Translations under genes and position numbers: made by a program
Part shown: positions 1 to 30,175 of the stretch, piece by piece
Layout: each line of letters begins with the position of its first letter
How positions within the stretch are numbered: position 1 is the stretch's first letter
The notes under the pieces: generated by a model
Told to the model about the DNA's origin: nothing
The model's input: only the letters and a program-made list of their open reading frames with translations
The model's database searches: none
Source of the DNA: an uncultured bacterium
GTDB lineage: Bacteria > Pseudomonadota > Gammaproteobacteria > Burkholderiales > SG8-39
Direction of reading: 5' to 3'
NCBI GenBank assembly: GCA_965233195.1
Contig: CBDDSB010000013.1
Span: 2,964 to 66,963, forward strand
Length of the DNA stretch: 64,000 bases

Positions 1-558
1 GTGCTGCGGCCCTCGCAGATGAAAGCGGCGGCAGAGCAGGCGAAGGCCGGCGCCGGTTCCCCGCTGAGTGGCGCGCAGGCGGCCGTCGCGCAGCGCGCAG
101 CCGCGGTGCAGCAGGTGGGGGCGACCGCCACGGCCGCCGGCATCGCCGACAAGGATACGGTCACCAAGCCCGTGACTCCTGCGCCGGCAGTTGCGCCCGC
201 GCCAGGCGGCGCGCCCGCTGCAGCGCCGGCGAAGGCTCCGGCCGCATCACCCGCCGCTGCCGCTTCCCCCGCGCCGGCGGGCAAGCCCGGCCAGCCGCTG
301 GGCGCGATCCAGCTGCTCTCGGGCGGCAATGCCGGCAAGGAGCTCGAGCTCACCAAGCCCCTGACCACGCTCGGCAAGCCCGGCGTGCAGGTTGCTGTTC
401 TCACCCGGCGCCCGGCCGGTTACTTCATCACCCACGTCGAGGGCGCCAACCGCCCGACGGTCAACGGCCAGGCGATCGGCGCCGCGCCGCATTCGCTCAA
501 GGACCACGACGTGATCGAGTTGGCCGGCGTCAAGATGGAGTTTTTTCTCAAGGCATAG
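1..558 (+). CDS. FHA domain-containing protein (C-terminal part; 5' end lies outside the window)
   Basis: The ORF is open from the window edge. An Ala/Pro-rich linker is followed by an FHA-like C-terminus ('LGKPGVQVAVLTRRPAGYFITHVEGANRPTVNGQAIG...HSLKDHDVIELAGVKMEFF'). Stop TAG 556-558 directly abuts the next start codon. Confidence 0.75.
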   Translation: MLRPSQMKAAAEQAKAGAGSPLSGAQAAVAQRAAAVQQVGATATAAGIADKDTVTKPVTPAPAVAPAPGGAPAAAPAKAPAASPAAAASPAPAGKPGQPLGAIQLLSGGNAGKELELTKPLTTLGKPGVQVAVLTRRPAGYFITHVEGANRPTVNGQAIGAAPHSLKDHDVIELAGVKMEFFLKA

Positions 559-2742
559 TTGAGGGTCGCGCTCGGCCTCGCGATCACGCTGTTCTTCGTA
601 GCCCACGCCGCGGAGTGGTTTCCCACCGCCGACGGCAAGCTGCGCCTGGTTTCCCAGCTCGACCACATCATCTACGACACGCGCCTGCGCATGTCGATGC
701 CGCGCAGCGTAGACCACCGCTTCGTGATCCTGGACATCGACGAGAAGAGCCTGGGCGAGCTCGGCCGCTGGCCGTGGAACCGGCGCTTGATGGCCGAGCT
801 GGTCGACAAGCTGTTCGAGCGCTATGGCGTGGCGGTGCTCGGCTTCGACGTAGTGTGGGCCGAGCGCGATCCAAGCTCGGGGATCGAGGTTCTGGACCGG
901 GTCGCTCGGGACGTTCCTGCATTTCAATCCGCGTACGCAAAACTGCGGCCGGGTCTGGACTTCGATGCCCGCTTCGCCGCGAGCATGAGGGACCGGCCGG
1001 TGGTGCTCGGCTATTACTTCAACTTCGAGGAGCGCGCGGTCAAGGCCAACGCGCTTCCCCGCCCGGTGCTGCCGAAGGGCAGTTTCGACGGCCGGCGCGT
1101 GTTCTTCCCGCAGACCTTCGGCTATACCGGCAATCTGCCGCTGTTTCTCGAAAGCGCGACCGTCGCCGGGCACATCAATCCGCGCGTGGACTTCGACGGC
1201 GTATTGCGCCGCGTACCGCTGGTCGTCGAGTACGGCGGCCAGTACTACGAAGCATTCTCGCTTGCCTTGGTGCGCGCGCTGCTCGCGCTCCAGACCGGCG
1301 CGGCGTTGCCGCCGGTCGAGCCCGGCTTTCCGCCCGACGACCCGAACCTGGAGTGGCTCAAGGTCGGCGGGCTGCAGATTCCGGTCGACGCCGAAGCCGG
1401 CGCGCTGGTGCCCTACCGGGCGCGCGGCGCCTTCCGCTACATCTCGCTGGCGGATGTCGCGGCCGACCGCGTCGCGCCGGACGCGCTGAAGGGGAAGGTC
1501 GCGATCATCGGCACCACGGCGCCCACGCTGCAGGACATGCGCGCGACCCCGATCGCCGACGTCTATCCGGGCGTGGAGGTCCACGCCAACATGATCGCGG
1601 GCATCATCGACGGCGAGGTGAAGCAGCGGCCGCTGTACGTGGTCGGCGCCGAGGTGGTGCTGCTGCTGATCGGCGGCATCGCGTTCGCGATCCTCATTCC
1701 GCGCCTGTCGGCGTTGTGGGCGACGCTCGTCACGCTGCTCGGCATCGTAGCGATCGCCGCGTTCAATTTCATGGTGTGGCAGGGCGGGCTGGTGCTGCCG
1801 CTCGCGGCCTCGCTGCTCATCGCCGCGGCGATCTACGTCCTCAACATGGCCTACGGCTACTTCGTCGAGTCGCGCTCCAAGCGGCGGCTCGCCGGTCGCT
1901 TTCGCGAGTACGTGCCGCCGGAAGTGGTCGAGCGCATGGAGCTCGATCCGGACAAGTACGACAAACCGAAGAGCGCGGAGCTGACCATCCTGTTCGCGGA
2001 CATCCGCGGTTTCACCAGCATCTCCGAGGCGCTCACGCCCGATGCGCTGCGCGACTACATCAACGAGTACCTGACCGAGATGAGCAGCATCATCCGCGAC
2101 CGTCACCGCGGCACGCTGGACAAGTACATCGGCGACGCGATCATGGCGTTCTGGGGCGCGCCGGTGGAGGACCCGCAGCACGCGCGCAACGCGTTGCTGG
2201 CGGCGCTGGCGATGCAGCGCCAGTGTGCGCCGCTCAACGCGCGCTTCGCCGCGCGCGGCTGGCCGGCGCTGAAGATCGGCATTGGCGTGAATTCCGGCAC
2301 AGTCCGCGTCGGCGACATGGGCTCGCAAGTGCGGCGTGCCTATACGGCGATGGGCGATGCCGTGAACGTCGCCTCGCGCCTGGAGGGGCGGACAAAAGCC
2401 TACGGCGTGGGAATCCTGGTCGGGGAGGCCACGCGCAGCCGGGTCCAAGATGTGGTATTCAGGGAAATCGACCGGGTCAAGGTCAAAGGAAAAGACGAGG
2501 CCATCACCATCTACGAGCCTCTGGAACCGGAAACAGGGGATGCGGAGCTGCGGGAATGGCAAGCCGCCCTGCATGCCTATCGCGCGCGCGACTGGGAGGC
2601 CGCAAACATGAGCCTCGGGCGCCTGCTCGCCGTGAACCCGGCCTGTGGCCTGTACGGCGTCTATCTCCAGAAAATCGATGAAAAGCGTCGCAACCCGCCG
2701 CCGTCCGACTGGGATGGCGTCACCGTGTTCGACGAAAAATAG
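559..2742 (+). CDS. CHASE2-type sensor adenylate/guanylate cyclase (class III)
   Basis: 727-aa ORF starting at TTG 559. It has a long N-terminal extracytoplasmic-type region, then a TM-rich block ('VVGAEVVLLLIGGIAFAILIPRLSALWATLVTLLGIVAIAAF...'). The C-terminus carries class III cyclase motifs ('LTILFADIRGFTSISE', 'GDAIMAFWGAP', 'IGVNSGTVRVGDMGS', 'YTAMGDAVNVASRLEG'). Confidence 0.9.
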   Translation: MRVALGLAITLFFVAHAAEWFPTADGKLRLVSQLDHIIYDTRLRMSMPRSVDHRFVILDIDEKSLGELGRWPWNRRLMAELVDKLFERYGVAVLGFDVVWAERDPSSGIEVLDRVARDVPAFQSAYAKLRPGLDFDARFAASMRDRPVVLGYYFNFEERAVKANALPRPVLPKGSFDGRRVFFPQTFGYTGNLPLFLESATVAGHINPRVDFDGVLRRVPLVVEYGGQYYEAFSLALVRALLALQTGAALPPVEPGFPPDDPNLEWLKVGGLQIPVDAEAGALVPYRARGAFRYISLADVAADRVAPDALKGKVAIIGTTAPTLQDMRATPIADVYPGVEVHANMIAGIIDGEVKQRPLYVVGAEVVLLLIGGIAFAILIPRLSALWATLVTLLGIVAIAAFNFMVWQGGLVLPLAASLLIAAAIYVLNMAYGYFVESRSKRRLAGRFREYVPPEVVERMELDPDKYDKPKSAELTILFADIRGFTSISEALTPDALRDYINEYLTEMSSIIRDRHRGTLDKYIGDAIMAFWGAPVEDPQHARNALLAALAMQRQCAPLNARFAARGWPALKIGIGVNSGTVRVGDMGSQVRRAYTAMGDAVNVASRLEGRTKAYGVGILVGEATRSRVQDVVFREIDRVKVKGKDEAITIYEPLEPETGDAELREWQAALHAYRARDWEAANMSLGRLLAVNPACGLYGVYLQKIDEKRRNPPPSDWDGVTVFDEK

Positions 2743-2758
2743 GAGAACGCCACCCGCC

Positions 2759-3526
2759 ATGCGTTTGCGCGTGCTCGGATGCTCGGGCGGGATCGGCGGG
2801 CGGCACCTGCGCACCACCTCGTTCCTTCTCGACAGCGACATCCTGATCGACGCCGGCACCGGGGTCGGCGACCTGACGCTGGCCGAGCTGTCGCAGATCG
2901 ATCACATTTTCGTCACGCATTCGCATCTGGACCACGTCACCTCGATCCCCTTCCTCGTCGATACCGTCGGCGGCATGCGCACCAAGCCGCTCACCGTGTA
3001 CACGACGCGCGCCACCATCGAGATCCTGAAGAACCATCTCTTCAACTGGGCGATCTGGCCGGACTTCACCGAGATCCCGACCCCCGAGGCCCCGTTCCTG
3101 CGCTACCAGGAGATCGAGCTCGGACAGACCACCGCGCTGGGCGCGCGCAAGATCACGGCGATTCCGGCGCGGCACACCGTCCCGGCGGTCGGCTACCACC
3201 TCGACAGCGGTGCCGCGAGCCTGGTGTTCACCGGCGATACCGGCCCGAACGACGCCTTGTGGCGGGTGGTCAACCGCATCGCCAACCTCAAGTTCCTCAT
3301 CATCGAGACCGCTTTTTCCAACAAGGAGCGCCAGCTGGCCGAGATCTCGCGCCACCTGTGCCCGCAAACCCTGGCCGACGAGCTCGCCAAGCTCGAGCGC
3401 AACGCCGAGATCTACATCACGCACCTCAAGCCCGGCGAGATCGAGCCCACCATGCTCGAGATCGAGGAGTGCGCGGGCAGCTTTCGGCCGCGCATGCTGC
3501 AAAACAACCTTGTCCTGGAATTCTGA
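2759..3526 (+). CDS. class II 3',5'-cyclic-nucleotide phosphodiesterase (metallo-beta-lactamase fold)
   Basis: ATG 2759 is preceded by AGGAGAA. Motifs 'MRLRVLGCSGGIGG' and 'HIFVTHSHLDHVTSIPFLVD' (HxHLDH) are typical of class II PDEs. The upstream part of the listed ORF (2645..) overlaps the cyclase gene and was not used. Confidence 0.8.
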   Translation: MRLRVLGCSGGIGGRHLRTTSFLLDSDILIDAGTGVGDLTLAELSQIDHIFVTHSHLDHVTSIPFLVDTVGGMRTKPLTVYTTRATIEILKNHLFNWAIWPDFTEIPTPEAPFLRYQEIELGQTTALGARKITAIPARHTVPAVGYHLDSGAASLVFTGDTGPNDALWRVVNRIANLKFLIIETAFSNKERQLAEISRHLCPQTLADELAKLERNAEIYITHLKPGEIEPTMLEIEECAGSFRPRMLQNNLVLEF

Positions 3527-4575
3527 AAACCACTCCGACCCAGCTCGCCGCGCTCGCGCCCCTGGCCGGGCTGTCGGCCGAGCGCCTGGCGGAGCTGTCT
3601 GAAGTCTCGCAGACCGAGCGCGCGCCGCGCGGCAGTGACCCGCTCGCCGGGCGCCTGCAGGGCGGACACTCGGTCTTCCTCCTCGCCGGCGAGGTGCTGC
3701 TGAGCCTGCAGGGCGGCGGCACGCTGGTGGTGGTGGGCGGCAGCGAAGAGACGCGGCAGGCGCTCAACCGGCGCAAGGAAAAGCTGGCGCGCGCCAAGGC
3801 GATCACCGATGTCGAGCTGCTGGTCATCGACGACGATCTGCTCGACATCCTCGCCACCTGGGACCAGGTGGCAGCGTCCGATCCGGAAGGAACGATCGCG
3901 CGGCTGCGCAGCGATCCGCGCTCGAGCGGCCCGTTCTCGCTCGGCAGCCTGCGCGCCGGCATCTTCGCGCAGCTCCCCGCGGCCCGCATCGACGACCTGC
4001 TGCGGCGCTTCGAGCGTGTAAAAGTGGCGCGCGGTGAAACCGTCATCCGCGAAGGCGACGAAGGCGACTTCTATTACCTGATCGAGTCCGGGCGCTTCCA
4101 GGTCGGGCGCATGGTGGGCGGCGCGGAAGTGGTGCTCGCCGAGCTCAAGAGCGGCGATGCCTTCGGCGAGGAAGCGCTGGTGTCGGAAGCAAAGCGCAAC
4201 GCGAGTGTCACCGCGCTGGTCGGGGGCTACCTGCTGCGCCTCAATCGAAGCAACTTCAACGAGATGCTGCGCGAGCCGCTGTTGCGGCGCCTGGGCTATG
4301 GCGACGCCGCCGAGCAGGTGCGCCGCGGCGCGCTGTGGCTGGATGTGCGGTATCCCTCGGAGTACCAGTACGACAAGCTGCCCGGCGCCATCAACGTGCC
4401 CCTGGCCGAAGTGAGGAACATGTTCGCAGTGCTCGATCGTAGTAAGGATTACATTGCCTACTGCCAGAGCGGCCGGCGCAGCGCCGCGGCGGCGTTTCTA
4501 TTCGCCCAGCGCGGCTTCAAAGTGTGGTTGCTCGAGGGTGGGTTAAAAGCTGTCGAGAGACCGGAAATTCGTTGA
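3523..4575 (+). CDS. cyclic-nucleotide-binding domain / rhodanese domain fusion protein (start codon uncertain)
   Basis: cNMP-binding signature 'GDAFGEEALVSEAKRNASVTAL'. C-terminal rhodanese active-site loop 'YCQSGRRSAAAAF'. The only in-frame canonical starts nearby are GTG 3469 (58-nt overlap with the PDE gene) and GTG 3694 (would delete about 57 N-terminal residues). CTG 3523 overlaps the PDE stop codon (CTGA). Confidence 0.72.
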   Translation: MKTTPTQLAALAPLAGLSAERLAELSEVSQTERAPRGSDPLAGRLQGGHSVFLLAGEVLLSLQGGGTLVVVGGSEETRQALNRRKEKLARAKAITDVELLVIDDDLLDILATWDQVAASDPEGTIARLRSDPRSSGPFSLGSLRAGIFAQLPAARIDDLLRRFERVKVARGETVIREGDEGDFYYLIESGRFQVGRMVGGAEVVLAELKSGDAFGEEALVSEAKRNASVTALVGGYLLRLNRSNFNEMLREPLLRRLGYGDAAEQVRRGALWLDVRYPSEYQYDKLPGAINVPLAEVRNMFAVLDRSKDYIAYCQSGRRSAAAAFLFAQRGFKVWLLEGGLKAVERPEIR

Positions 4576-4600
4576 AAATCAGGGTGCCTAGGCTTAACAT
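4572..4600 (+). promoter_or_regulatory. candidate sigma70-type promoter (TTGAAA-N17-TAACAT) upstream of the GAF-ATPase gene
   Basis: TTGAAA 4572-4577, a 17-nt spacer, then TAACAT 4595-4600. It lies in the only AT-richer gap of this region. A GGGAGGGGTAGGAG ribosome-binding stretch precedes ATG 4643. Confidence 0.35.
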
Positions 4601-4642
4601 GTCAAGTCTAGTCACAAGCAGTAAAGCAGGGAGGGGTAGGAG

Positions 4643-7021
4643 ATGAGTGCTGTCCTGAGCCAGCAGTCGCCGGCGCAGACCGATGTCGGCGCGCGCCTCG
4701 CGTTCCAGAAGCAGCTGCAGGCCGTCACCAACAAGATTCACGCCACCAACAACATCGACGAAATCATGTTGGAGGTGAGCGCGGATGTCTGCGCGCTGTT
4801 CAATGCCGACCGGCTGACGATCTACTCCATGGGCGAGGACAAGCAGTCCATCGTCTCGAAGGTCAAGACCGGCCTCAATTCCTTCAAGGACCTCAAGCTG
4901 CCGATCGCCGAGCATTCGATCGCCGGCTACGTCGCGCTCGCCAAGAAGACCGCCAACATCAAGGATGTCTACGACGAGAACGAGCTGCGCGCGCTGAACG
5001 GCAACCTGCGCTTCCTGCAGGAGGTCGACAAGCGCACCGGCTATCGCACCAAGCAGATGCTGGTGGCGCCGATCCTGGAAGCCGGCTCCAACGAGCTGAT
5101 CGGCGTGATCCAGATCATCAACAACAAGGCCGGTATCCCGTTCGGCGCGCTCGCCGAAGAAGGCGTGGGGGAGCTGTCGCAGACCCTCGCCATCGCCTTC
5201 AAGCAGCGCCAGAAACCGCAGGTCGCGAAGACCAAGTACGACTACCTGATCGCCGACGCGGTGCTGTCCGCCGGCGAGTTCGAGCTCGCCGCGCGCCAGG
5301 CGCGCAAGAAGGCGATCGACATCGAGCAGGTGCTGATCGACGAGTTCCAGGTCAAGATCCCGGCGATCGGCGCCGCGCTCTCCAAGTTCTTCGGCGTGGC
5401 GTACGAGGCGTTCAAGAGCGACCGCATCAAGCCGGCGGAGCTGCTGAAGAACCTGAAGCGCGAGTACGTCGAGTCCAACCAGTGGATTCCAATCGACGAG
5501 GGCAAGGATGGCCTGGTCGTGCTCTGCCTGGACCCCGAGCGCATCCGCTCCTCGCGCATCGCCTCGAACGTGTTCCCGAAGGCCCGCATCCTCTACAAGG
5601 TCGCGACACAGAAGGACTTCAAGGAGACGGTCAACCAGTTCTACGGAGCGGAGACCGGTCCGGCGGGCGGCGATCTGGGCAACGTCGAGGACCTGCTCGG
5701 CGCGATGGGCGACGATGCGGGGGAAGTGCTCGAGAGCTCGACCGACGAGGTCTCGGCGGCCGCGGACAACGAGCTGGTGAAGCTGGTGAACAAGGTCATC
5801 GTCGACGCCTACAACCAGGGCGCCTCGGACATCCACATCGAGCCCTATCCCGGCAAGGCGAAGACCGAGATCCGCTTCCGCAAGGACGGCTCGCTCGGGC
5901 CCTACATCGAGATCCCGGCGAGCTATCGCGCGGCGATCGTCGCGCGCCTGAAGATCATGTGCGACCTGGACATCTCGGAAAAGAGAAAGCCCCAGGACGG
6001 CAAGATCAAGTTCAAGAAATTCGGCCCGCTTGACATCGAGCTGCGGGTCGCGACCATCCCGACCGCGGGCGGCGTCGAGGACATCGTGATGCGGATTCTC
6101 GCCGCCGGCGAGCCGATCCCGCTGGAGAAGATGGGCTTCACCGACAAGAACCTGGAGCAGGTGAAGACCACGGTATCCAAGCCCTACGGCCTGTTCTTCG
6201 TGTGCGGTCCGACCGGCTCGGGCAAGACCACCACCTTGCATTCCGTGCTCAAGTTTCTGAACACGCCGGACACCAAGATCTGGACCGCCGAGGACCCGGT
6301 CGAGATCACGCAGAAGGGCTTGCGCCAGGTGCAGGTGAACAAGAAGGCGGGCCTCGACTTCGCGGTCATCATGAAGGCGTTTCTGCGCGCCGACCCGGAC
6401 ATCATCATGGTCGGCGAGATGCGCGACAAGGAGACCACCGGCACCGGCATCGAGGCCTCGCTCACCGGTCACCTGGTGTTCGCCACCCTGCACACCAACT
6501 CGGCGCCGGAATCCATCACGCGCCTGCTCGACATGGGGATGGACCCGTTCAACTTCTCCGACGCGCTGCTCGGCATCCTGGCGCAGCGCCTGGCGAAGCG
6601 CATGTGCAGCTGCAAGCAGCCCTACACGCCGGACGGCGCCGAGCTCACCGCCTTTTTGCGCGAGTACTGCGACGAGCTGATGGCCACCTCGCGCTTCAAG
6701 GCCGACCCCAAGGGCGCCATGGAGGCGGTCTACAAGGACTGGATCAGGGCCTACGGCAACGACAAGGGCCAGCTCACCTTCTACAAAACCGTGGGCTGCG
6801 ACAAGTGCGGCGGCTCGGGCTTCAAGGGGCGCTGCGGCCTGCACGAGCTGCTGATCGCCAGCGACCGGCTGAAGAAGGCGATCCAGGAGCACGCGCGTGT
6901 GGCTGACTTGCTCGCCATCTGCCTGGAGGAGGGCATGCGCACCCTCAAGCAGGACGGCATGGAGAAATGCCTGATGGGGGTGACCCACATGAAAGAAGTG
7001 CGCGCCGTTTGTGTCAAGTAG
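4643..7021 (+). CDS. GspE/PilB-family secretion ATPase with N-terminal GAF domain
   Basis: 792 aa. N-terminal GAF-like region ('DRLTIYSMGEDKQSIV...DKRTGYRTKQMLVAPI...LIGVIQIINN'). Then a GspE-N-like domain. Walker A 'GPTGSGKTTTLHS' and Walker B region 'DPDIIMVGEMRDKETT' follow. The C-terminus has a tetracysteine motif ('CSCKQ...CDKCGGSGFKGRCGLHELL'). Confidence 0.9.
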   Translation: MSAVLSQQSPAQTDVGARLAFQKQLQAVTNKIHATNNIDEIMLEVSADVCALFNADRLTIYSMGEDKQSIVSKVKTGLNSFKDLKLPIAEHSIAGYVALAKKTANIKDVYDENELRALNGNLRFLQEVDKRTGYRTKQMLVAPILEAGSNELIGVIQIINNKAGIPFGALAEEGVGELSQTLAIAFKQRQKPQVAKTKYDYLIADAVLSAGEFELAARQARKKAIDIEQVLIDEFQVKIPAIGAALSKFFGVAYEAFKSDRIKPAELLKNLKREYVESNQWIPIDEGKDGLVVLCLDPERIRSSRIASNVFPKARILYKVATQKDFKETVNQFYGAETGPAGGDLGNVEDLLGAMGDDAGEVLESSTDEVSAAADNELVKLVNKVIVDAYNQGASDIHIEPYPGKAKTEIRFRKDGSLGPYIEIPASYRAAIVARLKIMCDLDISEKRKPQDGKIKFKKFGPLDIELRVATIPTAGGVEDIVMRILAAGEPIPLEKMGFTDKNLEQVKTTVSKPYGLFFVCGPTGSGKTTTLHSVLKFLNTPDTKIWTAEDPVEITQKGLRQVQVNKKAGLDFAVIMKAFLRADPDIIMVGEMRDKETTGTGIEASLTGHLVFATLHTNSAPESITRLLDMGMDPFNFSDALLGILAQRLAKRMCSCKQPYTPDGAELTAFLREYCDELMATSRFKADPKGAMEAVYKDWIRAYGNDKGQLTFYKTVGCDKCGGSGFKGRCGLHELLIASDRLKKAIQEHARVADLLAICLEEGMRTLKQDGMEKCLMGVTHMKEVRAVCVK

Positions 7022-8660
7022 CACCGCTGGCGTGAACCTTTACGACACGAGCGCCGGGCACCTGCGGCTCGGCGCGCTCGCGGCCCCGGAGGACCTGGGG
7101 CAGCGGCTGGAGGAGCTGAACGCGATCGGCGCCTCGCTCTCCGCCGAGCGCGACATCAACCGCCTGCTGGAATCGATCCTCGCCGCGGCCAAGACCATCA
7201 CCGGCGCGGACGGCGGCACCCTGTATCGCCTGGCCGACGACAAGACGCTGCGCTTCGAGATCGTGCGCACCACCTCGCTCAAGTATTACCTCGGCGGCAC
7301 CAGCGGCAATCCGGTGCCGTTCTATCCGATCCAGCTCTACAAGGACGGCAGGCCCAACCACAGCATGGTCGCGGCCCACGCCGCCCTCACCGGCAAGACG
7401 GTGAACATCGCCGACGCCTACACCGCCGACGGCTTCGACTTCTCCGGCACGCGCGCTTTCGACTCGAAGACCGGCTACCGCTCCAAGTCGTTCCTCACCG
7501 TGCCGATGCGCAACCACGAGCACGAGGCGATCGGCGTGCTGCAGCTGATCAACGCGCGCGACCCGAAGACGGGCGAGATCGCCGCCTTCTCGGATTCCGA
7601 CCAGCGCCTGGCCGAGTCGCTCGCCTCGCAGGCGGCGATCGCGCTCACCAATCGCATGCTGATCAACCAGCTCGAGCAGCTGTTCGAGTCGTTCATCAAC
7701 CTGATCAACTCCGCGATCGACGAAAAATCGCCTTACACCGGCGGCCACTGCCAGCGCGTGCCGCAGCTCACCATGATGCTGGCGGAGGCGGTGAACGACA
7801 CGCGCGAGGGTCCGCTCGCCGACTTCCACATGAGCGAGAAGGACCGCTACGAGCTGAAGATCGCCGGCCTGCTGCACGACTGCGGCAAGGTCACCACCCC
7901 GGTGCACGTCGTGGACAAGGCCACCAAGCTCGAGACCATCTACGACCGCATCCACCTCATCGACACGCGCTTCGAAATCTTGAAGCGGGATCTGGAAATC
8001 CGCTCCCTGAAGAATGAAATTCCGGAACGGGAGCTGCGCATTCGATTACGCGAGCTGGACGACGACCGCCGCTTCCTCCATGCCTGCAACATCGGCAGCG
8101 AGCGCATGCGCGACGAGGACATGGCGCGCGTGAGACGCATTGCCGCCTACCGCTGGCGCGACATGGCCGGGCACGAAGTCAGCTTCCTGAGCGACGACGA
8201 GGTGACCAACCTCACGATCCGCGCCGGTACCCTCACCGACGAGGAGCGCAAGGTGATCAACCACCACATCGTCGCCACCATCAAGATGCTCGAGGCGCTG
8301 CCGTGGCCCAAGCACCTGACCAAGGTGCCGGAGTACGCCGGCGGCCACCACGAGCGCATGGACGGCAAGGGCTACCCGAAGGGCCTGAAACGCGAACAGA
8401 TGTCGGTGCAGGCGCGCTGCATGGGCATCGCCGACATCTTCGAGGCGCTCACCGCCAAGGACCGGCCCTACAAGAAGGGCAAGACCCTGTCCGAATCGCT
8501 CGAGATCCTCGGCCGCATGCGCCTGAACAACCACGTCGATCCGGACCTCTTCGACATCTTCGTGCGCCGCAAGGTGTACCGGCGCTATGCCGAGATGTTC
8601 CTCGATCCGGAGCAGATCGATGACGTCGACGAGGCGCGCATTCCCGGCTATCAGCCCTAA
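7011..8660 (+). CDS. GAF domain-containing HD-GYP phosphodiesterase (c-di-GMP-type)
   Basis: GTG 7011 overlaps the upstream stop by 11 nt. N-terminal GAF ('DSKTGYRSKSFLTVPM...AIGVLQLINA'). HD-GYP core ('LLHDCGKV', 'GGHHERMDGKGYPKGL'). Confidence 0.9.
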   Translation: MSSSTAGVNLYDTSAGHLRLGALAAPEDLGQRLEELNAIGASLSAERDINRLLESILAAAKTITGADGGTLYRLADDKTLRFEIVRTTSLKYYLGGTSGNPVPFYPIQLYKDGRPNHSMVAAHAALTGKTVNIADAYTADGFDFSGTRAFDSKTGYRSKSFLTVPMRNHEHEAIGVLQLINARDPKTGEIAAFSDSDQRLAESLASQAAIALTNRMLINQLEQLFESFINLINSAIDEKSPYTGGHCQRVPQLTMMLAEAVNDTREGPLADFHMSEKDRYELKIAGLLHDCGKVTTPVHVVDKATKLETIYDRIHLIDTRFEILKRDLEIRSLKNEIPERELRIRLRELDDDRRFLHACNIGSERMRDEDMARVRRIAAYRWRDMAGHEVSFLSDDEVTNLTIRAGTLTDEERKVINHHIVATIKMLEALPWPKHLTKVPEYAGGHHERMDGKGYPKGLKREQMSVQARCMGIADIFEALTAKDRPYKKGKTLSESLEILGRMRLNNHVDPDLFDIFVRRKVYRRYAEMFLDPEQIDDVDEARIPGYQP

Positions 8661-10638
8661 CGACCTAGCCGAGGGCTGGCAGGCCATCGAGCGCAACGAT
8701 TTGCGGGCGGCAGAGGGCATCGCCCGCGCCGCGCTAACGGCGAATCCTGGCGATGTCGAATCGCTGTATCTCCTCGGATCGAGCCTGCTGTTCCAGGACC
8801 GCTTCCAGGAGGCACTGGCGCCGTTGAGCGATGTGGTTCGAAGCGCGCCGCGCCGGGGAGCTTGCCACCGCCTCGGGTACTGCCATCTAGCTCTCGGCGA
8901 CTTCAAGTCCGCAGAACAGCTGCTGCGACGCGAGATTGCCGCGCACCCGGACCTGGTCGACGCGCACAACACCCTGGGCGTTGCGCTGATCAACCAGGGC
9001 AGCGCGCGCGACGCGCTCGCGGTGTTTCTCGAAGCAGCCAGGCTCGACCCGCGCTCCGCCACTGCGAACAACAACGTCGCGAACGTGCTTGGCGAGCTGG
9101 GACGCAACGACGAGGCGTTGCCGTACCTTCAAAAAGTCATCGAAGCGAACCCCGGGCTGGCGGATGCACGCCACAACCTCGGCATGCTGCTGCAGAAGCT
9201 CAAGCGCCATGAGGAGGCGGTGGCGAGCCTGGAAGCGGCGCTGCGCCTCGCGCCGGGGGCGGCGTATACGCTAAGCAGCCTGGTGTGGAATGAGCTCGCG
9301 ATCTGCAAATGGGACGGATTGACGGCGCACATCGACGCCCTTCGCAGCCAGGTGCGCCGGGCTGAGATCCCCGCCGAGCCTTTTGTCTTCGTCGCCGTGT
9401 CGCCATCTCCAGAGGAGCAGCGGCTGTGCGCGGAACGGCACGTGCGGCAAAAGCTGCCGCCGCGCGCACCGCTCTGGCAAGGATCCCGCTACCGCCACGA
9501 CCGCGTCCGACTCGCCTACCTGTCGGCCGATTATTGCGAGCATGCGACCGCCTATCTCGCTGCCGGGCTCTTCGAGCGGCACGATCGCTCCCGCTTCGAG
9601 GTTATCGGCGTCTCTTACGGGCCCGACGATCACAGCCCGATGCGACAGCGCCTGATGCGCGGCTTCGATCGGTTCGTCGACGTCCAGTCGCGCGGCGACG
9701 AGGAAACCGCGCGTCTGCTGCGGGAGATGGAGGTCGACGTCGCGATTGACCTCAAGGGGTACACCACCGGCGCCCGCCCGGAAATCCTCTCGTATCGCCC
9801 CGCGCCGGTGCAGGCGAGCTACCTCGGCTTTCCGGGAACGATGGCGGCGCCGTTCATCGACTACATCGTCGCCGACCGCTGGGTGCTGCCGGAGGCGGAT
9901 CGGCCTCACTACGCCGAGCAGGTCGTGTATCTGCCCGACAGTTATCAGGTGAACGATGCCGCACGCGCGATCGCCGGCGATGTCCCGACCCGGGCAGAGG
10001 CGGGATTGCAACAGCACGCGTTCGTGTTCTGCTGCTTCAACAACAGCTACAAGATCATGCCGCCGGTGTTCGAGATATGGATGAAGCTGCTGCGCGAGAT
10101 CCCCGAAAGCCTGCTCTGGCTGCTTGAAGACAGCGGCGGGGCGAGGCGGCGCTTGCAGCATGCCGCGCAGGCGAGCGGGGTGGACCCCAAGAAGCTGGTG
10201 TTCGCTGCTCGCGTCGCGCCCGCCGCGCACCTGGCGCGCCATCGCCTGGCGGACCTGTTCCTCGATACGCTGCCGTGTAACGCCCACACCACCGCGAGCG
10301 ACGCGCTATGGGCGGGCCTGCCGGTACTGACCTGCGTCGGCGATGCCTTCGCCGGCCGGGTCGCTGGCAGCCTGCTGCGCGCCGTCGGCCTGCCCGAGCT
10401 TGTCGCGCCGAGTCTGCATGACTATGAGACGCTCGCGTTCAAGCTCGCGCGAGCGCCGGCCCTGCTCGCGGAGCTCAGGGGCAGGCTGGTGCGCAACCGC
10501 GCCACGGCCCCGCTCTTCGACCTCGAGCGCTTCCGGCGTCATCTCGAAGCTGCGTATCTGACGATGTGGGAAACCGCGCAGCGCGGAGAGCCGCCGCGCG
10601 GATTTGCGGTCCAGCCGCTGCCGAACGATCAGCGCTGA
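8620..10638 (+). CDS. TPR-repeat protein with C-terminal GT41 (O-GlcNAc-transferase/SPINDLY-like) domain
   Basis: N-terminal TPR repeats ('ESLYLLGSSLLFQDRFQEALAPL...', 'AHNTLGVALINQGSARDALAVFLEAARLDP'). The C-terminal OGT-like region includes 'RLAYLSADYCEHATAYL', 'APVQASYLGFPGTM' and 'NAHTTASDALWAGLPVLT'. ATG 8620 is preferred over ATG 8587; both overlap the HD-GYP gene. Confidence 0.8.
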   Translation: MTSTRRAFPAISPNDLAEGWQAIERNDLRAAEGIARAALTANPGDVESLYLLGSSLLFQDRFQEALAPLSDVVRSAPRRGACHRLGYCHLALGDFKSAEQLLRREIAAHPDLVDAHNTLGVALINQGSARDALAVFLEAARLDPRSATANNNVANVLGELGRNDEALPYLQKVIEANPGLADARHNLGMLLQKLKRHEEAVASLEAALRLAPGAAYTLSSLVWNELAICKWDGLTAHIDALRSQVRRAEIPAEPFVFVAVSPSPEEQRLCAERHVRQKLPPRAPLWQGSRYRHDRVRLAYLSADYCEHATAYLAAGLFERHDRSRFEVIGVSYGPDDHSPMRQRLMRGFDRFVDVQSRGDEETARLLREMEVDVAIDLKGYTTGARPEILSYRPAPVQASYLGFPGTMAAPFIDYIVADRWVLPEADRPHYAEQVVYLPDSYQVNDAARAIAGDVPTRAEAGLQQHAFVFCCFNNSYKIMPPVFEIWMKLLREIPESLLWLLEDSGGARRRLQHAAQASGVDPKKLVFAARVAPAAHLARHRLADLFLDTLPCNAHTTASDALWAGLPVLTCVGDAFAGRVAGSLLRAVGLPELVAPSLHDYETLAFKLARAPALLAELRGRLVRNRATAPLFDLERFRRHLEAAYLTMWETAQRGEPPRGFAVQPLPNDQR

Positions 10639-12599
10639 CCGGCACACCACGCGCGCCACATCTCGCGGTAGACCTTCTCCAGATCCCTGGTGAAGCGCGC
10701 CTCGTCCATCAGCGGGCTCGCCTGCAATTTCGCGCGTAGCGTGGAGCGCAGCTCGGCGAGCAGCGCGGGGTTTCTGGAAGCGTCGACGGCACGCTGCACA
10801 TACTCATCGGGGCTCGACGCGATCCAGTCAGTCAGGCCGGCCGTCGTCAGGATGCTGGCCGCGCTGCGCGAGGGCGGTCGCGAGCCGGGAAGCGTGACCA
10901 CCGGCACGCCCATCCACAGTGCGTCGCAGGTCGTGGTGCCGCCACTGTAGGGGGTGCTGTCGAGGGCGATGTCGACGCGCGCGAACCAGTCGTAGTACTC
11001 GCGCAGCGGCGCGAAGGGCACGAGGGTCACGCGGCTCGCGGCGATGCCGACAGCGCCGAGGCGCCGCAGCACCTCATCGCTCGCGCGACCCGGCGCGACG
11101 CCGAGCACCGTGAGGCGCGCCTCGGGAAGCTGCCGGAAAACGTTCCCCCACAGCGCGACGGTGGCGGCTGAGAGCTTGGCGATCTGCGTGAACGTGCCGA
11201 AGGTGACGTGCCGTTCGCGCACGCACGGCGGCGCGGCGGCGGCTGGCGCGTCCACAAAAGGGCGGTAGCACCACTGGCTGTGCGGCAGGCGCACCAGCGT
11301 CTCGGTATGCAGCCGCTCGGCCTCCGGCGGGTCGCTGACGGCGTCCGTGATGCGGTAGGCGATGCGCGTAAGGCCGGTGGTGTTGAGATAGCCGAGCCAT
11401 GCCGCCTGCACGGGCGCAGGCTGCAGGGCGAATGCGCCGAGCCGCGCGATGCCGGAATGACCGGAGAGGTCGACCAGGATGTCGACGTGGTCGGCACGAA
11501 TCGCCTGCGCCAGCTGCGCCTCGGAGGCGCTGGCGGCGTCGCGCCACAGGTCGGCGTGCGCTGCCACGCGGCGAGTGAAGTCGTCCGCCCGGGTGCTGGT
11601 GCCATAGCAGCAGATCTCGAAGCTGGCACGGTCGTGACGCTCCAGCAGCGGCAGCATGAACAGCGCGACCGGATGCGAGTGGAAGTCGCCGGAGACGTAG
11701 CCGATGCGCAGCCGGCGCTCGGCATCGGCGGCGGGGGCGAAGGTAAAGGCGGGTGGCCGCGCGCGCTCCAGCCGCTCCCCGAAGGCGCGGTGCCGCTCGA
11801 ACAGCGCCTCGGCCGAGATCGTGTCGCTGAAATTGAGCAGGAACAGCTCAAATGACGCAATCTCGAGCTGGCCTGGGTCGCGCTCGAGGGCGCCGGCGCA
11901 GAGCGCGAGGATTTCGTCTACGCGTCCCTGCCGGTGCAGCAGGTTGCCGAGCATCCGGTAGGCGAGGACGAACCCCGGGTCAAGGGCGAGCACGCGGCGC
12001 AGCGCCGCCTCGGCCTCTGCGTCGCGCTCCAGGCGCATCAGCGTCCTGCCGTAGTTGTAGACAGCCTCGGTCCAGTCGGGCTTGTCGCGCAGAACGGCCT
12101 CGAGCTGCGCCGCGGCCGCCGCAAGGTCGCCTTGCGCCTCCAGGATATGGAAAAGCGCCGCGCGGGCCATCAAGTCCTTGGGCCGGTGCGGCAGCGCGCT
12201 CTTCAGCTCGGCGGCCGCGGCGGCAAGCTCGCCCTGCGCCTGCAGCACGTAGGCGAGCACGATGCGCGCGTCCGGGAAGTCGGGACGCTGGCGCAGCGCG
12301 TGCTCGAGCAGCTGCCGCGCCCGCGGCAGCTCGCCGCGCGCGTATAGCAGCTTGCCGAGGTTGTACCCGGCGAAGGGGTCCGCCGCGTCGAGCGCCAGCG
12401 CGCTTTCATAGCAGGCGACGGCGCCGGCGGCATCGCCGAGCGCCTCAAGGCCGATGCCCAGGTTGAGATGCGCCTTGGCGTAACGTGGCGCGCTGGCCAC
12501 CGCCCGGCGATAAAGCTCGCAGGCCTTTTCAAACGCGCCGGCGGTCTCGGCGCGGTTGCCCTCGGCAATCAACTGGTCCGCGGCCTCATTACCCGACAC
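10629..12599 (-). CDS. TPR-repeat protein with C-terminal GT41 (O-GlcNAc-transferase-like) domain, paralog of 8620..10638
   Basis: GTG start at 12599. TPR repeats ('AKAHLNLGIGLEALGDAAGAVACYESALALD'). OGT-like C-terminus ('RIGYVSGDFHSHPVALF', 'APVQAAWLGYLNTTG', 'YSGGTTTCDALWMGVPVVT'). Confidence 0.8.
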   Translation of the reverse strand: MSGNEAADQLIAEGNRAETAGAFEKACELYRRAVASAPRYAKAHLNLGIGLEALGDAAGAVACYESALALDAADPFAGYNLGKLLYARGELPRARQLLEHALRQRPDFPDARIVLAYVLQAQGELAAAAAELKSALPHRPKDLMARAALFHILEAQGDLAAAAAQLEAVLRDKPDWTEAVYNYGRTLMRLERDAEAEAALRRVLALDPGFVLAYRMLGNLLHRQGRVDEILALCAGALERDPGQLEIASFELFLLNFSDTISAEALFERHRAFGERLERARPPAFTFAPAADAERRLRIGYVSGDFHSHPVALFMLPLLERHDRASFEICCYGTSTRADDFTRRVAAHADLWRDAASASEAQLAQAIRADHVDILVDLSGHSGIARLGAFALQPAPVQAAWLGYLNTTGLTRIAYRITDAVSDPPEAERLHTETLVRLPHSQWCYRPFVDAPAAAAPPCVRERHVTFGTFTQIAKLSAATVALWGNVFRQLPEARLTVLGVAPGRASDEVLRRLGAVGIAASRVTLVPFAPLREYYDWFARVDIALDSTPYSGGTTTCDALWMGVPVVTLPGSRPPSRSAASILTTAGLTDWIASSPDEYVQRAVDASRNPALLAELRSTLRAKLQASPLMDEARFTRDLEKVYREMWRAWCAGQR

Positions 12600-12644
12600 G
12601 CGCGGATTCTACCGTTCGGCGCGGGCGCCTATAATCCACGCCGC

Positions 12645-12971
12645 ATGCTGAGCTGGTTCTCGAGTAAACAGGTCGACGCGTTCGCGGACTCGATCGTCGC
12701 CGAATTGCTCGAGCGCTTTCCGCCGACGGGCATAGAGCTGTCGACGGAGAAGGCGGCAGAGCGCGCGATGAAGAATTTAGAGCGCATCCTGTCGCTCATC
12801 GGCGTGTTTGCCGCGGAGCACCGGCCTGGCCTCTACCAGAAGGCACGCTTCGGCAACCGCGTCAAATGGGCGTTGAAGGAGGCTGGCTACCCGCCGCCGG
12901 TGGTCGAGCTCATCACGCACGAGGTCGTGGCCAAGATGGCGCTGGCCGCCCGGGCGCGGCCCCCGAGGTGA
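12645..12971 (+). CDS. hypothetical protein (108 aa)
   Basis: ATG 12645 within the listed ORF 12468..12971. The sequence upstream of this ATG overlaps the divergent gene. No recognisable motif. Codon third positions are GC-rich like the neighbouring genes. Confidence 0.5.
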
Positions 12972-13066
12972 CCAAATTCGGCAGTCGAGCGCGCGATTGG
13001 GCAGATCAGCGTGAAGAAATCCCCCCTTTGGACGTGAAAAGCTTGGCGAAAGAGCGGTTTGGCCTA

Positions 13067-13082
13067 TGGCATGGGAGTTGCT
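13067..13082 (+). promoter_or_regulatory. sigma54 (-24/-12) promoter upstream of the pilin gene
   Basis: TGGCAT-GGGAG-TTGCT matches the TGGCAC-N5-TTGCW consensus. It lies 63 nt upstream of the pilA ATG. Type IV pilin genes are classically RpoN-dependent. Confidence 0.6.
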
Positions 13083-13144
13083 CAACAGGGGTGCGTCAGA
13101 GAATAATGCTGACCGAATTAATTCACCAAGAGAGGGAAATCACA

Positions 13145-13615
13145 ATGAAAACGATGCAGAAGGGCTTCACCCTGATCGAACTGATGATCGTGGTTGCGAT
13201 CATCGGAATTCTGGCGGCCGTCGCGCTGCCGGCGTATCAGGACTACACCATCCGCGCGAAGATGTCGGAAGTGATTCTCGGGATGAGCGCTTGCCGCACC
13301 TCGATCACCGAGGTGTACCAGTCCGGTCCTACCCAAGCGCCGGGAATCAACGGCTGGGGCTGCGAGGTCTCGGCCTCGCAAGCGACGAAGTACGTCGCGG
13401 GAATCACCACCAACGGCGACGGCGCGGTGGCTGCCACAGTGACGGGCATCAGCAGCTCGGTGAACGGCTCGGTGGTCACGCTGATCCCGATGTCGACTTC
13501 CGCTGCGGCCGCCACGTTCTCCGCTGGCGACAGCAAGAGCCTGTACGGCTGGGTCTGCGGCGGCACGGGCACCAACGTGACGCTGAAGTATCTGCCCGGC
13601 TCCTGCCGCGGCTAA
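13145..13615 (+). CDS. pilA: type IV major pilin (type IVa)
   Basis: Class III signal '[34 protein letters not shown]' with Gly-1/Phe+1/Glu+5. C-terminal Cys pair ('[19 protein letters not shown]'). GAGAGGGA ribosome-binding site upstream. Confidence 0.92.
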
Positions 13616-13635
13616 CAGGTCCTAGCTTTGAAAAG

Positions 13636-13663
13636 AGGTACCCTTCGGGGTACCTTTTTTTTT
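13636..13663 (+). terminator. rho-independent terminator after pilA
   Basis: Perfect 8-bp stem AGGTACCC/GGGTACCT with a TTCG tetraloop, followed by T8. Confidence 0.75.
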
Positions 13664-13687
13664 GACCTGGGGGGGTCGCGCAAAGGG

Positions 13688-14836
13688 ATGACGGAGCTGA
13701 CGATTCTCATGCCGTGCCTTAACGAGGCGGCGACCGTCGGCAGCTGCATCGGCAAGGCGCGCGACTTCCTGCAACGCACCGGGATCGAAGGCGAAGTGCT
13801 GGTGGCCGACAACGGCTCCGACGACGGCTCGCGGGCCGTGGCGGAACGCGCCGGCGCCCGCGTCGTGCAGGTCGCGCAGCGCGGGTACGGCGCCGCGCTC
13901 ACCGGCGGCATCGCCGCGGCGCGCGGCCGCTATGTGATCATGGGCGACGCCGACAACAGCTACGACTTCGGCCGCCTCGAGCCTTTCGTCGAGAAGCTGC
14001 GCCAGGGCTATCCCCTGGTGATGGGAAACCGCTTCAAAGGCGGCATCCGGCGCGGTGCCATGCCGCCGCTGCACCGCTATCTCGGCAACCCGGTGCTCAG
14101 CTTCCTAGGCCGCCTGCTGTTCGGCGCGCGGGTTGGCGACTTCCATTGCGGCCTGCGCGGCTTCGACCGCCGGGCCGTCGGCGCGCTCGATCTTAGGACC
14201 AGCGGGATGGAGTTCGCGAGCGAGCTGGTGGTGAAGGCGGCGCTCGCCGGATGGCGCATCGCCGAGGTGCCGATCACGCTGCACCCGGACGGCCGCGGGC
14301 GACCCGCGCATCTGCGCAGCTGGCGTGACGGGTGGCGCCACCTGCGCTTCCTGCTGCTGTTCAGTCCGCGCTGGCTGTTCCTTTATCCGGGGCTCGCGTT
14401 GCTCGCTTGCGGCATGGCGCTGACCACCGCGCTGTACTTCTCCCCGCTGCGCATTCTGGGCGCCGGGCTCGACGTGCACAGCATGCTCTACGCTTCCGCC
14501 GGCGCCTTGCTCGGCCTGCAGCTGTGCCTGTTTGCGCTGTTCGCGCGCGTATCCGCGCAGAGCGCCGGGCTGCTGCCGCGGCGGCCGGCGCTCGATCGGC
14601 TGCTGCAGGCACTTACCCTCGAGCGCGGCCTGCTCCTCGGGCTTGCGGTTGCGGCCTGCGGCCTGTTCTGGAGCGCCGCGGCCTTCTGGCAATGGCGCGA
14701 GACCGGGTTCGGCGCGCTCGACCCGCGCGTGGTGATGCGCGACACCATCCCGGCGGCGACCCTGATGGTTGGCGGCATGGAGCTGGTGCTTGCCTCGTTC
14801 CTGCTGAGCGTCCTGCGGCTGAGGGAGGGCGGCTAG
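13688..14836 (+). CDS. family 2 glycosyltransferase with C-terminal multi-TM domain (polyprenol-phosphate sugar synthase-like)
   Basis: 'LTILMPCLNEAATVGSCI', 'VLVADNGSDDGS' and 'VIMGDADNSYDF' (DxD) form a GT2 core. A hydrophobic C-terminal half follows ('FLLLFSPRWLFLYPGLALLACGMALTTALYF...'). Confidence 0.85.
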   Translation: MTELTILMPCLNEAATVGSCIGKARDFLQRTGIEGEVLVADNGSDDGSRAVAERAGARVVQVAQRGYGAALTGGIAAARGRYVIMGDADNSYDFGRLEPFVEKLRQGYPLVMGNRFKGGIRRGAMPPLHRYLGNPVLSFLGRLLFGARVGDFHCGLRGFDRRAVGALDLRTSGMEFASELVVKAALAGWRIAEVPITLHPDGRGRPAHLRSWRDGWRHLRFLLLFSPRWLFLYPGLALLACGMALTTALYFSPLRILGAGLDVHSMLYASAGALLGLQLCLFALFARVSAQSAGLLPRRPALDRLLQALTLERGLLLGLAVAACGLFWSAAAFWQWRETGFGALDPRVVMRDTIPAATLMVGGMELVLASFLLSVLRLREGG

Positions 14837-14843
14837 GCCGATC

Positions 14844-29208: not shown

Positions 29209-30175
29209 CGCACGCGGCGCTGCTCGTAGTTCCAGGCGTCGCGCACGATGCCGTCGATATCGGCGCGCGCCGGCTGCCAGCCGAGCACCTGCCGCGCTTT
29301 GCTCGCATCCGCCACGAGGGACGGCGGATCTCCCGCTCTGCGTTCAGCCTGGACCATTTTTATTGTCTTTCCTGTGACGCGGCGCGCGGCCTCGATGACC
29401 TCGAGCACGGTAGCGCCGTCGCCGTTGCCGAGATTAAAGCATTCATAGCGTCCGCCCTTCGCCAGCCAGTCGAGCGCCAGCAGGTGGGCGACGCACAGGT
29501 CGCTGACATGGATGTAGTCGCGCACGCAAGTGCCGTCGCGCGTTGGCCAGTCGTTGCCGAATACCGAGATCGACGCTCGGCGCCCCGCTGCCGCCTGCAA
29601 CACGAGCGGGATGAGGTGGGTCTCCGGATCGTGCCGCTCGCCGAGCTCGCCGCCGGGATCGGCGCCCGCGGCGTTGAAGTATCTCAGCACCACCGCGCCG
29701 ATCCCGTAGGCGCTGCTGCACTCGGCGAGCATGCGCTCGATGGCGAGCTTGCTCGAGCCGTAGGGATTGACCGGCTGCGTGGGGTGCGCTTCGTCGATGG
29801 GCGTGCGCACGGGATCGCCGTACACCGCCGCCGTCGATGAAAACACCAGCCGCGTCACCTTCGCCTCGCGCATCGCTTCCACCAGCCCCACCGTGCCCCC
29901 CACGTTGCGCCGGTAGTACTTGAGCGGGTCGGCGACCGATTCGCCCACCAGGCTGCAGGCGGCGAAATGCACCACGGCCTCGATGCCGTTCTGCGCCAGA
30001 AGATTCTTGGTGGAGGCGACATCGGTGAGGTCGCCACGCACGAGCTTTGCACCGCGCACGGCCTCGGCGTGCCCGGTGGAGAGGTCGTCGAGGACCGTGA
30101 CCTCCGCCCCGCGCTCGACGAGCAGCTTCACCATGTGCGAGCCGATGTAGCCCGCACCGCCGGTGACAAGCGCCC

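Follow-up and report, generated by a model that had tools for sequence, protein, structure and literature searches.

The question raised by this locus is which signal controls, and which machine is served by, a motor ATPase that carries a GAF domain at its N-terminus and is encoded directly ahead of a GAF-HD-GYP protein. The locus lies in a stretch of 64,000 nucleotides (contig CBDDSB010000013.1 of assembly GCA_965233195.1, positions 2,964–66,963, forward strand) from an uncultured bacterium of the Burkholderiales lineage SG8-39, which is analyzed here at its whole length and called the window. The ATPase, a 792-aa protein of the PilB/GspE family, is encoded at positions 4643–7021 and the HD-GYP protein at 7011–8660, both on the plus strand. 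Three forms of second-messenger control of extension ATPases are known: the action of cyclic di-GMP (c-di-GMP) on the MshEN domain, the partner proteins FimX and PilZ, and transcriptional control by cyclic AMP (cAMP) through Vfr. The analysis of the domain architecture, the GAF contact residues of the cyclic nucleotide (cNMP) type, the degenerate MshEN motifs, the intact ATPase and HD-GYP motifs and the conserved gene neighborhood led to a reading which is held with modest confidence: a PilB-family motor gated by cAMP, with a c-di-GMP phosphodiesterase responsive to cAMP as its partner, the two forming the effector half of a conserved cAMP module.

Domain architecture of the ATPase

Pfam recognized three domains in the ATPase: GAF at residues 38–185 (31.8 bits against a cutoff of 22.4), MshEN (PF05157) at residues 253–338 (34 bits against a cutoff of 23) and T2SSE at residues 374–786 (E 9e-111). 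The AlphaFold2 (AF2) model, with a mean pLDDT of 83, resolved the GAF domain (residues 13–190), N1D (residues 200–334), folded as four helices followed by an alpha/beta unit, a disordered linker (residues 337–373), N2D (residues 374–490) and the C-terminal domain (CTD, residues 495–792). On the plus strand of the window the GAF domain corresponds to positions 4679–5212, the N1D/GSPII domain, placed by alignment to residues 8–109 of Myxococcus xanthus PilB, to 5234–5647, and N2D with the catalytic CTD, placed by Pfam, alignment and the AF2 model, to 5762–7018.

The Walker A motif (GPTGSGKT, residues 522–529), the Walker B motif with the catalytic glutamate (DIIMVGEMRD, residues 586–595) and the His box (residues 609–619) were all intact, and the protein has the PilB architecture, consisting of N1D(GSPII)-N2D-CTD, Walker A/B, the Asp and His boxes and a variant zinc cysteine cluster. 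The variation lies in the pattern CxC...CxxC (C655, C657, C719 and C722, invariant in the diverse family alignment) and in a confidently predicted helical insert of some 40 residues (approximately 665–704) between the two cysteine pairs, window positions 6605–6754 spanning residues 655–704. The sequence-only reading of this DNA had described an ATPase with a GspE-N domain, Walker A/B motifs, a tetracysteine core and an N-terminal GAF domain at the same position, in agreement with the Pfam and motif results, while two of its labels could be sharpened: the GspE-N domain is present, being the MshEN family itself with degenerate motifs, and the four cysteines form the split pattern with the insert. 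Both the insert and the CxC pair are family-wide; a paralog lacking the GAF domain in locus L096 (L-numbers denote the fetched relative loci, 133 in all) has the insert but a CxxC pair.

The best solved relative by sequence was M. xanthus PilB (E 1e-105), with Thermus thermophilus PilF also among the best. The ATPase core matched T. thermophilus PilF and Geobacter PilB with a target-normalized TM score of approximately 0.9 and 40–43% identity.

Loss of the c-di-GMP motifs in N1D

The c-di-GMP site of MshEN was sought as the tandem 24-residue motif RLGxx(L/V/I)(L/V/I)xxG(L/V/I)(L/V/I)xxxxLxxxLxxQ or its relaxed form (Wang et al., PMC5013675), written as a regular expression. In the alignment to M. 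xanthus PilB, the two motifs of the ATPase begin with K198-Y-D in place of RLG and with D226-I-E in place of RIG, and these degenerate columns are invariant in its orthologs. The relaxed motif was found in none of the 74 orthologs and in none of the 20 diverse family members, while it did match the M. xanthus control. Motif 1 of the Nitrospirota homolog still begins with RLG, a hint that the loss came second. The earlier proposal of an alternative to the MshEN solution gains support from this loss in an N1D of MshEN fold; more exactly, the GAF domain has been added to that domain and does not replace it.

With the c-di-GMP-sensing ATPases (Vibrio cholerae MshE, the PilB proteins of M. xanthus and Chloracidobacterium, and T. 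thermophilus PilF) the window ATPase shares the N1D-N2D-CTD motor, a zinc cysteine cluster and the principle of an N-terminal second-messenger sensor on the motor, which in its case is putative. In contrast to them it has lost both 24-residue motifs, has an extra GAF domain ahead of N1D and the CxC...CxxC pattern with its insert, and is not encoded together with pilC/pilD. A PilB likewise devoid of a working MshEN site and receiving its second-messenger input by another route is known from the PilB-PilZ-FimX systems of Xanthomonas and Pseudomonas.

The GAF domain and its putative cAMP pocket

A phmmer search of the ATPase GAF domain against all PDB sequences gave the cAMP-binding tandem GAF of Anabaena CyaB2 as the top match (1ykd, E 3e-26), followed by GAF-B of PDE10A, which is also a cAMP binder, the GAF of PmGH, and then PDE5, PDE2 and PDE6. 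With the GAF-only model (pLDDT 84), Foldseek gave the same ranking as the sequence search, CyaB2, PmGH, PDE2, PDE5, PDE10 and PDE6 being the top matches; of the comparison with cNMP-binding GAFs that had been proposed from the sequence, this covers the predicted fold, for which CyaB2/PDE-type domains come first. In CyaB2 GAF-B, cAMP is contacted by Arg291 (N1), Thr293 (N6/N7), Ile308 (stacking) and the backbone of Thr309, with water-mediated contacts of Asp356 and Asn359 to N3 (PMC4411481). By HMMER and MAFFT alignment, CyaB2 residues R291, T293, I308, T309, D356 and N359 correspond to R57, T59, V74, K75, D129 and T132 of the ATPase, the threonine in the last position being the same as in CyaB2 GAF-A and PDE10.

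Among the 74 ATPase orthologs R57, T59, D129 and T132 are invariant and V74 is nearly so. In the diverse alignment, including members of 33–57% identity, R57 and T59 are conserved in at least 90% and D129 is invariant, and the homologs from Desulfobacterota and Nitrospirota retain the equivalents of R57, T59 and D129. The ligand-contacting residues whose absence would have spoken against nucleotide binding are thus present, and such invariance of Arg, Thr and Asp is the pattern expected of a ligand pocket rather than of a scaffold. Judged by its sequence, the ATPase GAF belongs to the cNMP-binding clade. It shares with the GAFs of Anabaena CyaB1/CyaB2 and mammalian PDE2/5/10 the Arg/Thr/Asp contacts, a hydrophobic lid and a long C-terminal helix leading into the effector; in contrast to them it is single, not tandem, its output is a PilB-family ATPase instead of a cyclase or phosphodiesterase, and its NKFDE signature is partial.

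Two points count against cAMP as the ligand. The NKFDE signature is kept only in part (N161, K162...F167...A171, E172), with Ala or Thr in place of Asp, and isolated CyaB2 GAF-B binds cyclic GMP (cGMP) as well as cAMP (PMC4411481), so that residue matches do not fix the specificity of the domain. A GAF serving as a structural or dimerization module, or binding cGMP, another nucleotide or a metabolite instead of cAMP, with the cyclase of the locus linked to it indirectly, for instance via the neighboring cNMP-binding rhodanese protein, would also agree with the diversity of GAF ligands, with the lack of a known ligand for the closely matching PmGH GAF and with the His found at the Arg position in an Undibacterium homolog. 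This explanation is considered quite improbable, because Arg, Thr and Asp are invariant in the orthologs and conserved as far as Nitrospirota and Desulfobacterota, and because an adenylyl-type cyclase and an enzyme resembling cAMP phosphodiesterases are conserved together with the ATPase.

The GAF-HD-GYP partner

In the protein encoded at 7011–8660 Pfam recognized GAF (E 5e-15), HD and HD_5 domains, and its best solved relative was PmGH (4mcw, E 1e-31), an active enzyme. The motifs 'LLHDCGK' (HD) and 'HHERMDGKGYP' are invariant in 88 orthologs, and the protein combines the N-terminal GAF with the HD and HHExxDGxGYP metal and substrate motifs of the HD-GYP family. The same architecture with intact motifs is present in Tlr0485 of Thermosynechococcus and in PmGH; Tlr0485 is activated by cAMP, and the GAF-HD-GYP architecture has been catalogued as the PmGH family. 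Unlike these two, the window protein has an insertion of approximately 90 residues and a Gly at the position of the Arg that contacts adenine N1, and it is fixed beside a PilB-like ATPase. The insertion (window positions 7935–8210, residues ~309–400) splits the HD-GYP domain, with HD ending at residue 315 and HD_5 resuming at residue 396; a similar one has been reported in GAF-associated HD-GYPs such as Leptospira LIC_11189 (PMC12943098).

The two GAF domains of the window share 30% identity over 168 columns (pairwise E 5e-14), which is beyond generic resemblance and bears out the previously noticed common motifs. The HD-GYP GAF keeps T70, D151 and T154 as the equivalents of Thr293, Asp356 and Asn359 (Thr) and is probably cAMP-responsive as well. 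Its ligand is less certain than that of the ATPase, since the Arg291 position is taken by Gly-Gly, and by sequence the domain is closer to PDE5 GAFs than to CyaB2; both facts speak against a shared cAMP response.

With the GTG start at 7011 the HD-GYP gene overlaps the ATPase gene by 11 nt, as reported before, while the alternative in-frame GTG at 7032 would leave a gap of 10 nt. Among the relatives the spacing ranges from -25 to +7 nt with a single exception of 67 nt, so that close, translational coupling is the conserved feature rather than an overlap of fixed length.

The upstream cyclase, phosphodiesterase and CNB-rhodanese genes

Three genes on the plus strand precede the ATPase. The first (559–2742) encodes a class III cyclase with a CHASE2 sensor (Pfam CHASE2, E 3e-54; Guanylate_cyc, E 1.5e-23), whose catalytic domain has Pseudomonas aeruginosa CyaB (3r5g) as its best solved relative. 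In the alignment with CyaB, CyaC and Cya2 variants, its substrate-specifying positions are a Lys in 'LDKYIGD' (Glu in the guanylyl cyclase Cya2) and a Thr in 'YTAMGD'; the Lys is retained in all 62 loci carrying the motif. From these residues the cyclase is predicted to be of the adenylyl type. The second gene (2759–3526, probable start MRLRVLG at 2759) encodes a metallo-beta-lactamase (MBL) fold protein resembling class II cAMP phosphodiesterases (Pfam Lactamase_B_2 and PDEase_II, the latter with E 5e-15), in which HSHLDH represents the class II motif HxHLDH. The third (approximately 3469–4575) encodes a protein with a cyclic nucleotide-binding (CNB) and a rhodanese domain (cNMP_binding, E 1.6e-20; Rhodanese, E 1.3e-14), with a plausible phosphate-binding cassette 'GEEAL...KRNAS' and a 'CQSGRRS' loop. 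Where this gene starts is uncertain: reading in frame, one first meets a canonical start codon at GTG 3469, and there is none near the end of the upstream gene. The cyclase had been called adjacent to the ATPase, which was incorrect, the phosphodiesterase-like and CNB-rhodanese genes standing between them. The idea that the GAF ligand is a cNMP produced by this nearby cyclase has nevertheless gained ground, given the CyaB2-type GAF, its conserved contacts and the syntenic, putatively adenylyl-type cyclase.

The ATPase gene starts with ATG behind a strong Shine-Dalgarno sequence, GGGAGGGG. The G+C content of the window is approximately 67%. A scan of its positions 1–14000 gave promoter and terminator counts not above those of shuffled sequence, and a single promoter-like site just upstream of the ATPase (4572–4600) is weak evidence.

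Several features upstream of the cyclase were recorded in relatives. In the close relative L081, genes for a PP2C phosphatase and an FHA-domain protein (4055–5669) stand ahead of the cyclase, and the truncated first ORF (open reading frame) of the window (1–558) matches L081 positions 5549–5821, overlapping the 3' end of the FHA gene and a 53-aa ORF; among the 80 close loci defined below, 26 retain it. These neighbors suggest an input of Ser/Thr phosphorylation to the module. Genes of two-partner secretion (TPS), namely a ShlB/FhaC transporter and a TPS-domain protein, recur beside the CHASE2 cyclase (L113:669–3002 and L100:10240–13044), and weak second CHASE2 matches are located 3–4 kb upstream of the cyclase in L108, L110, L117–L119, L121 and L123. 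Either the TPS genes or the second CHASE2-like protein may hold a clue to the stimulus of the CHASE2 sensor.

Conservation of the gene module

Species-representative genomes were scanned with the N-terminal 380 residues of the ATPase, giving 255 loci, of which the best 80, at least 77% identical, are referred to as close loci; in the synteny counts the denominators are those of the best 80 loci with enough flanking DNA for the gene in question. Neighborhoods were also read around near-identical proteins of the window ATPase. The closest relatives are proteins from metagenome-assembled genomes (MAGs) labeled as Burkholderiales or Betaproteobacteria, mostly from soil. The family is abundant, with relatives in at least 255 species-level genomes, and the best 80 are mostly soil Burkholderiales MAGs.

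The HD-GYP gene directly follows the ATPase gene in 64 of 65 close loci, the phosphodiesterase gene is syntenic in 62/69, the cyclase gene in 54/57 and the CNB-rhodanese gene in 55/74. A second scan showed the four-gene core (cyclase, phosphodiesterase, ATPase and HD-GYP) persisting at 57–70% ATPase identity, including cultured strains. The gene order of the window is kept in Parachitinimonas caeni DQS-5 and a Gallionella MAG, while Pseudoduganella sp. R-43 (complete genome), Duganella spp. Root336D2 and Root1480D1 and Massilia sp. TWP1-3-3 have a divergent arrangement, with the cyclase and HD-GYP genes on the strand opposite to the MBL and ATPase genes. The HD-GYP gene is still adjacent in Magnetococcus sp. 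MYC-9, whose ATPase is only 39% identical. That the module survives rearrangement argues strongly for a functional link. The GAF-GspE/GAF-HD-GYP pair, for which a survey of genomes had been proposed, recurs in the close loci and in distant cultured relatives, and the coupling of the motor to c-di-GMP turnover suggested earlier gains support from the adjacency, retained even where the order is inverted, and from the invariant catalytic motifs. What tells against a fixed module is that no HD-GYP gene was seen within the fetched DNA of the Methylophosphatis relatives (L104–L106), the Aromatoleum MAGs (L120 and L122) and Chitinolyticbacter albus (L123).

MAG MFD02416.bin.2.181 contains two whole cyclase-phosphodiesterase-CNB-ATPase-HD-GYP clusters on different contigs (L033 and L041), each with an ATPase 81–82% identical to the window protein, which represents either a true duplication or a mixing of strains in the bin.

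A combination of a cyclase, cNMP-binding effectors and an Apyc1-like phosphodiesterase is also reminiscent of Pycsar-type anti-phage defense. The cyclase domain matched the PycC models of PADLOC (best 96 bits), the CNB domain weakly matched PycTIR and effector models, and the L081 ortholog of the MBL protein (255 aa) matched the Apyc1 family. But these matches extend no further than the generic domains of class III cyclases and CNB proteins, and PADLOC gave no meaningful match to the ATPase, HD-GYP and MBL proteins. The cyclase is of the purine type (Lys/Thr) with a CHASE2 extracytoplasmic sensor, the cluster lacks a TIR or pore effector, and vertical conservation throughout an order at a stable locus sets the module apart from the patchy occurrence of defense islands. 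A defense function is extremely improbable, and this reading was rejected, the PADLOC matches being restricted to the level of generic domains.

Relation to type IV pili

The only pilin gene, described before as some 6 kb downstream, is a type IVa major-pilin-like gene with a C-terminal Cys pair at 13145–13615 (plus strand), 6.1 kb past the ATPase stop. A pilin gene is located downstream of the HD-GYP gene in 45 of 58 close loci, in 14 of them as the very next gene, and also in L106 and L128; the pilins of L081 match N_methyl and Pilin in Pfam. In the clade of the window, the motor probably serves this downstream pilin.

Several results weigh against a pilus motor. The ATPase scored 471.9 bits with the NCBIfam equivalog model of PilB (TIGR02538, cutoff 675.65) and 431.5 bits with that of GspE (TIGR02533, cutoff 630.25); it therefore belongs to a distinct subfamily of the PilB/GspE clade and may be a paralog with another job. 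Membership in GspE itself found no support, the score being under the cutoff and gsp genes being absent from the 64-kb window. Domain searches of all sizeable ORFs of the window gave no PilC/GspF, PilM-Q, PilD or secretin domain, in agreement with the sequence-only reading, which had noted the lack of platform and secretin genes. The distant members of the ATPase family stand alone, their neighbors being unrelated genes and not those of pili or a type II secretion system (T2SS), and in Oxalobacteraceae, as in the distant members, the ATPase gene has no pilin neighbor, so that the link to pili rests on one clade. A second canonical PilB/GspE/PilT gene was found neither in the 133 fetched loci nor in the window, where only paralogs of the same family appeared (L129 and L085).

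The main rival explanation takes these results at face value: the ATPase would be a cNMP-sensing, orphan PilB/GspE-like protein with a signaling or other mechanical role, and the pilin would be an incidental neighbor. Consistent with it, the module in cultured Oxalobacteraceae is flanked by GNAT, PHO4 and DnaB genes, the zinc subdomain has its family-specific helical insert, and the GAF/N1D unit also exists without the ATPase, in one case fused to TIR (P0170). It is nevertheless judged fairly unlikely, since the core is so close to bona fide PilB and PilF and has all motor motifs, the N1D used for docking to the platform is retained, and the pilin recurs downstream in most close loci. Moreover, extension ATPases are often encoded apart from their machine, as in Ramlibacter, also a member of Burkholderiales, which has three PilB paralogs and one pilus machine (PMC3164672) and makes an additional specialized PilB paralog plausible.

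The pilin gene lies inside a glycosyltransferase island (8587–18019), which looks like a pilin glycosylation locus. It starts with two convergent genes for TPR-GT41 glycosyltransferases, both O-GlcNAc-transferase-like (8587–10638, plus strand; 10629–12599, minus strand), while genes for a GT2 glycosyltransferase (13628–14836), a GT2-GtrA protein (14844–15941) and a TMEM260-like GT-C protein (15608–18019) are located downstream of the pilin. The pilin is accompanied by the GT2, GtrA and GT-C genes in 16–21 of the 80 close loci, and the downstream pilin is probably glycosylated. Large proteins with a spermidine-synthase-like domain are encoded in the window at 27046–29343 (minus strand) and in L081 at 14023–17016, the latter gene being situated between the HD-GYP gene and two pilin genes.

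Proposed mechanism

From the computed features we infer that cAMP would bind to the ATPase and turn its activity either up or down, that it would control the HD-GYP protein, and that the ATPase would have a role in pilus extension. In the preferred reading of a cAMP-gated motor, the membrane-bound CHASE2 adenylyl cyclase would produce cAMP in response to an extracytoplasmic cue and the class-II-like phosphodiesterase would reset its level. The cAMP would be read by the CNB-rhodanese protein, by the N-terminal GAF of the ATPase and probably by the GAF of the HD-GYP protein. In the ATPase, binding of cAMP in the pocket formed by R57, T59, V74, D129 and T132 may be relayed through the long C-terminal helix of the GAF domain (residues 169–190) to N1D, and the signal would switch either the activity of the hexameric motor or the way it docks onto a type IV pilus platform, whose genes would lie elsewhere. 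In the lineage of the window the motor would drive the assembly of the pilin described above, while the co-translated HD-GYP protein would simultaneously lower c-di-GMP.

A tie between cAMP and type IV pili is already known from the Pil-Chp/CyaB/Vfr system, and it is P. aeruginosa CyaB to which the window cyclase is closest. However, the input by Vfr is transcriptional and that by FimX/PilZ is provided in trans, while in the window ATPase the putative sensor and the motor are parts of one protein. GAF is not mentioned in a review of PilB regulation from 2024, which refers to cAMP only as a transcriptional input via Vfr. In the literature covered, which was incomplete and so gives no proof of absence, no account of a fusion of GAF to PilB or GspE was found.

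The wider family and its significance

A search of the GAF+N1D region against 1.84 billion cluster representatives gave 260 clusters (50% identity) at E ≤ 1e-30, with GAF-GAF-MshEN-T2SSE and triple-GAF-MshEN-T2SSE among the architectures. The metagenomic locus L085 (4581–13156) encodes three consecutive GAF(-GAF)-MshEN-T2SSE ATPases of 1018, 804 and 942 aa between topoisomerase genes. Paralogs of the same subfamily without the GAF domain are present in Massilia and Janthinobacterium (L129:9357–11180, L096:5926–7836 and L131); the one of L096 has a degenerate N1D motif ('KYA') together with the insert in the zinc subdomain, and in Massilia sp. TWP1-3-3 such a paralog is located directly downstream of the GAF-bearing copy.

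The unit of GAF and N1D also occurs without the motor. Cultured Undibacterium sp. Di24W encodes a 429-aa GAF+N1D homolog lacking the ATPase domain (L100:5929–7218), in which Pfam finds only MshEN and the position of Arg57 is occupied by His. Its gene neighbors that of a TPS-domain protein, and a CHASE2 cyclase is encoded approximately 1 kb away in the opposite orientation. This represents an independent recurrence of a GAF-like/N1D protein near such a cyclase, and the protein could serve as a form of the sensor that acts in trans. Two further proteins, P0170 (HEAT...MshEN...TIR, 1106 aa, 40% identical to query residues 53–347) and P0135 (an Mrr nuclease followed by multiple GAFs), have architectures with a similar unit, and the module appears to be portable.

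A broader interpretation is offered tentatively, as possible but short of probable: cAMP would act directly and post-translationally on a motor of the type IV pilus family, the four-gene module would respond to one extracytoplasmic cue by activating the motor and lowering c-di-GMP at once, the unit of GAF and N1D would serve as an adaptor for cAMP that can be moved between proteins, and the orphan GAF-PilB-like ATPases of Nitrospirota, Desulfobacterota and Magnetococcia would form an uncharacterized class of messenger-switched motors. As the family is present in cultured Duganella, Pseudoduganella, Massilia and Parachitinimonas, the hypothesis is directly testable. If true, the fusion of a cAMP-type GAF to this motor would represent a fourth, direct route of second-messenger control of extension ATPases and a natural example of a sensor-domain swap on the same motor scaffold, and it would show cAMP and c-di-GMP signaling wired together at one locus.

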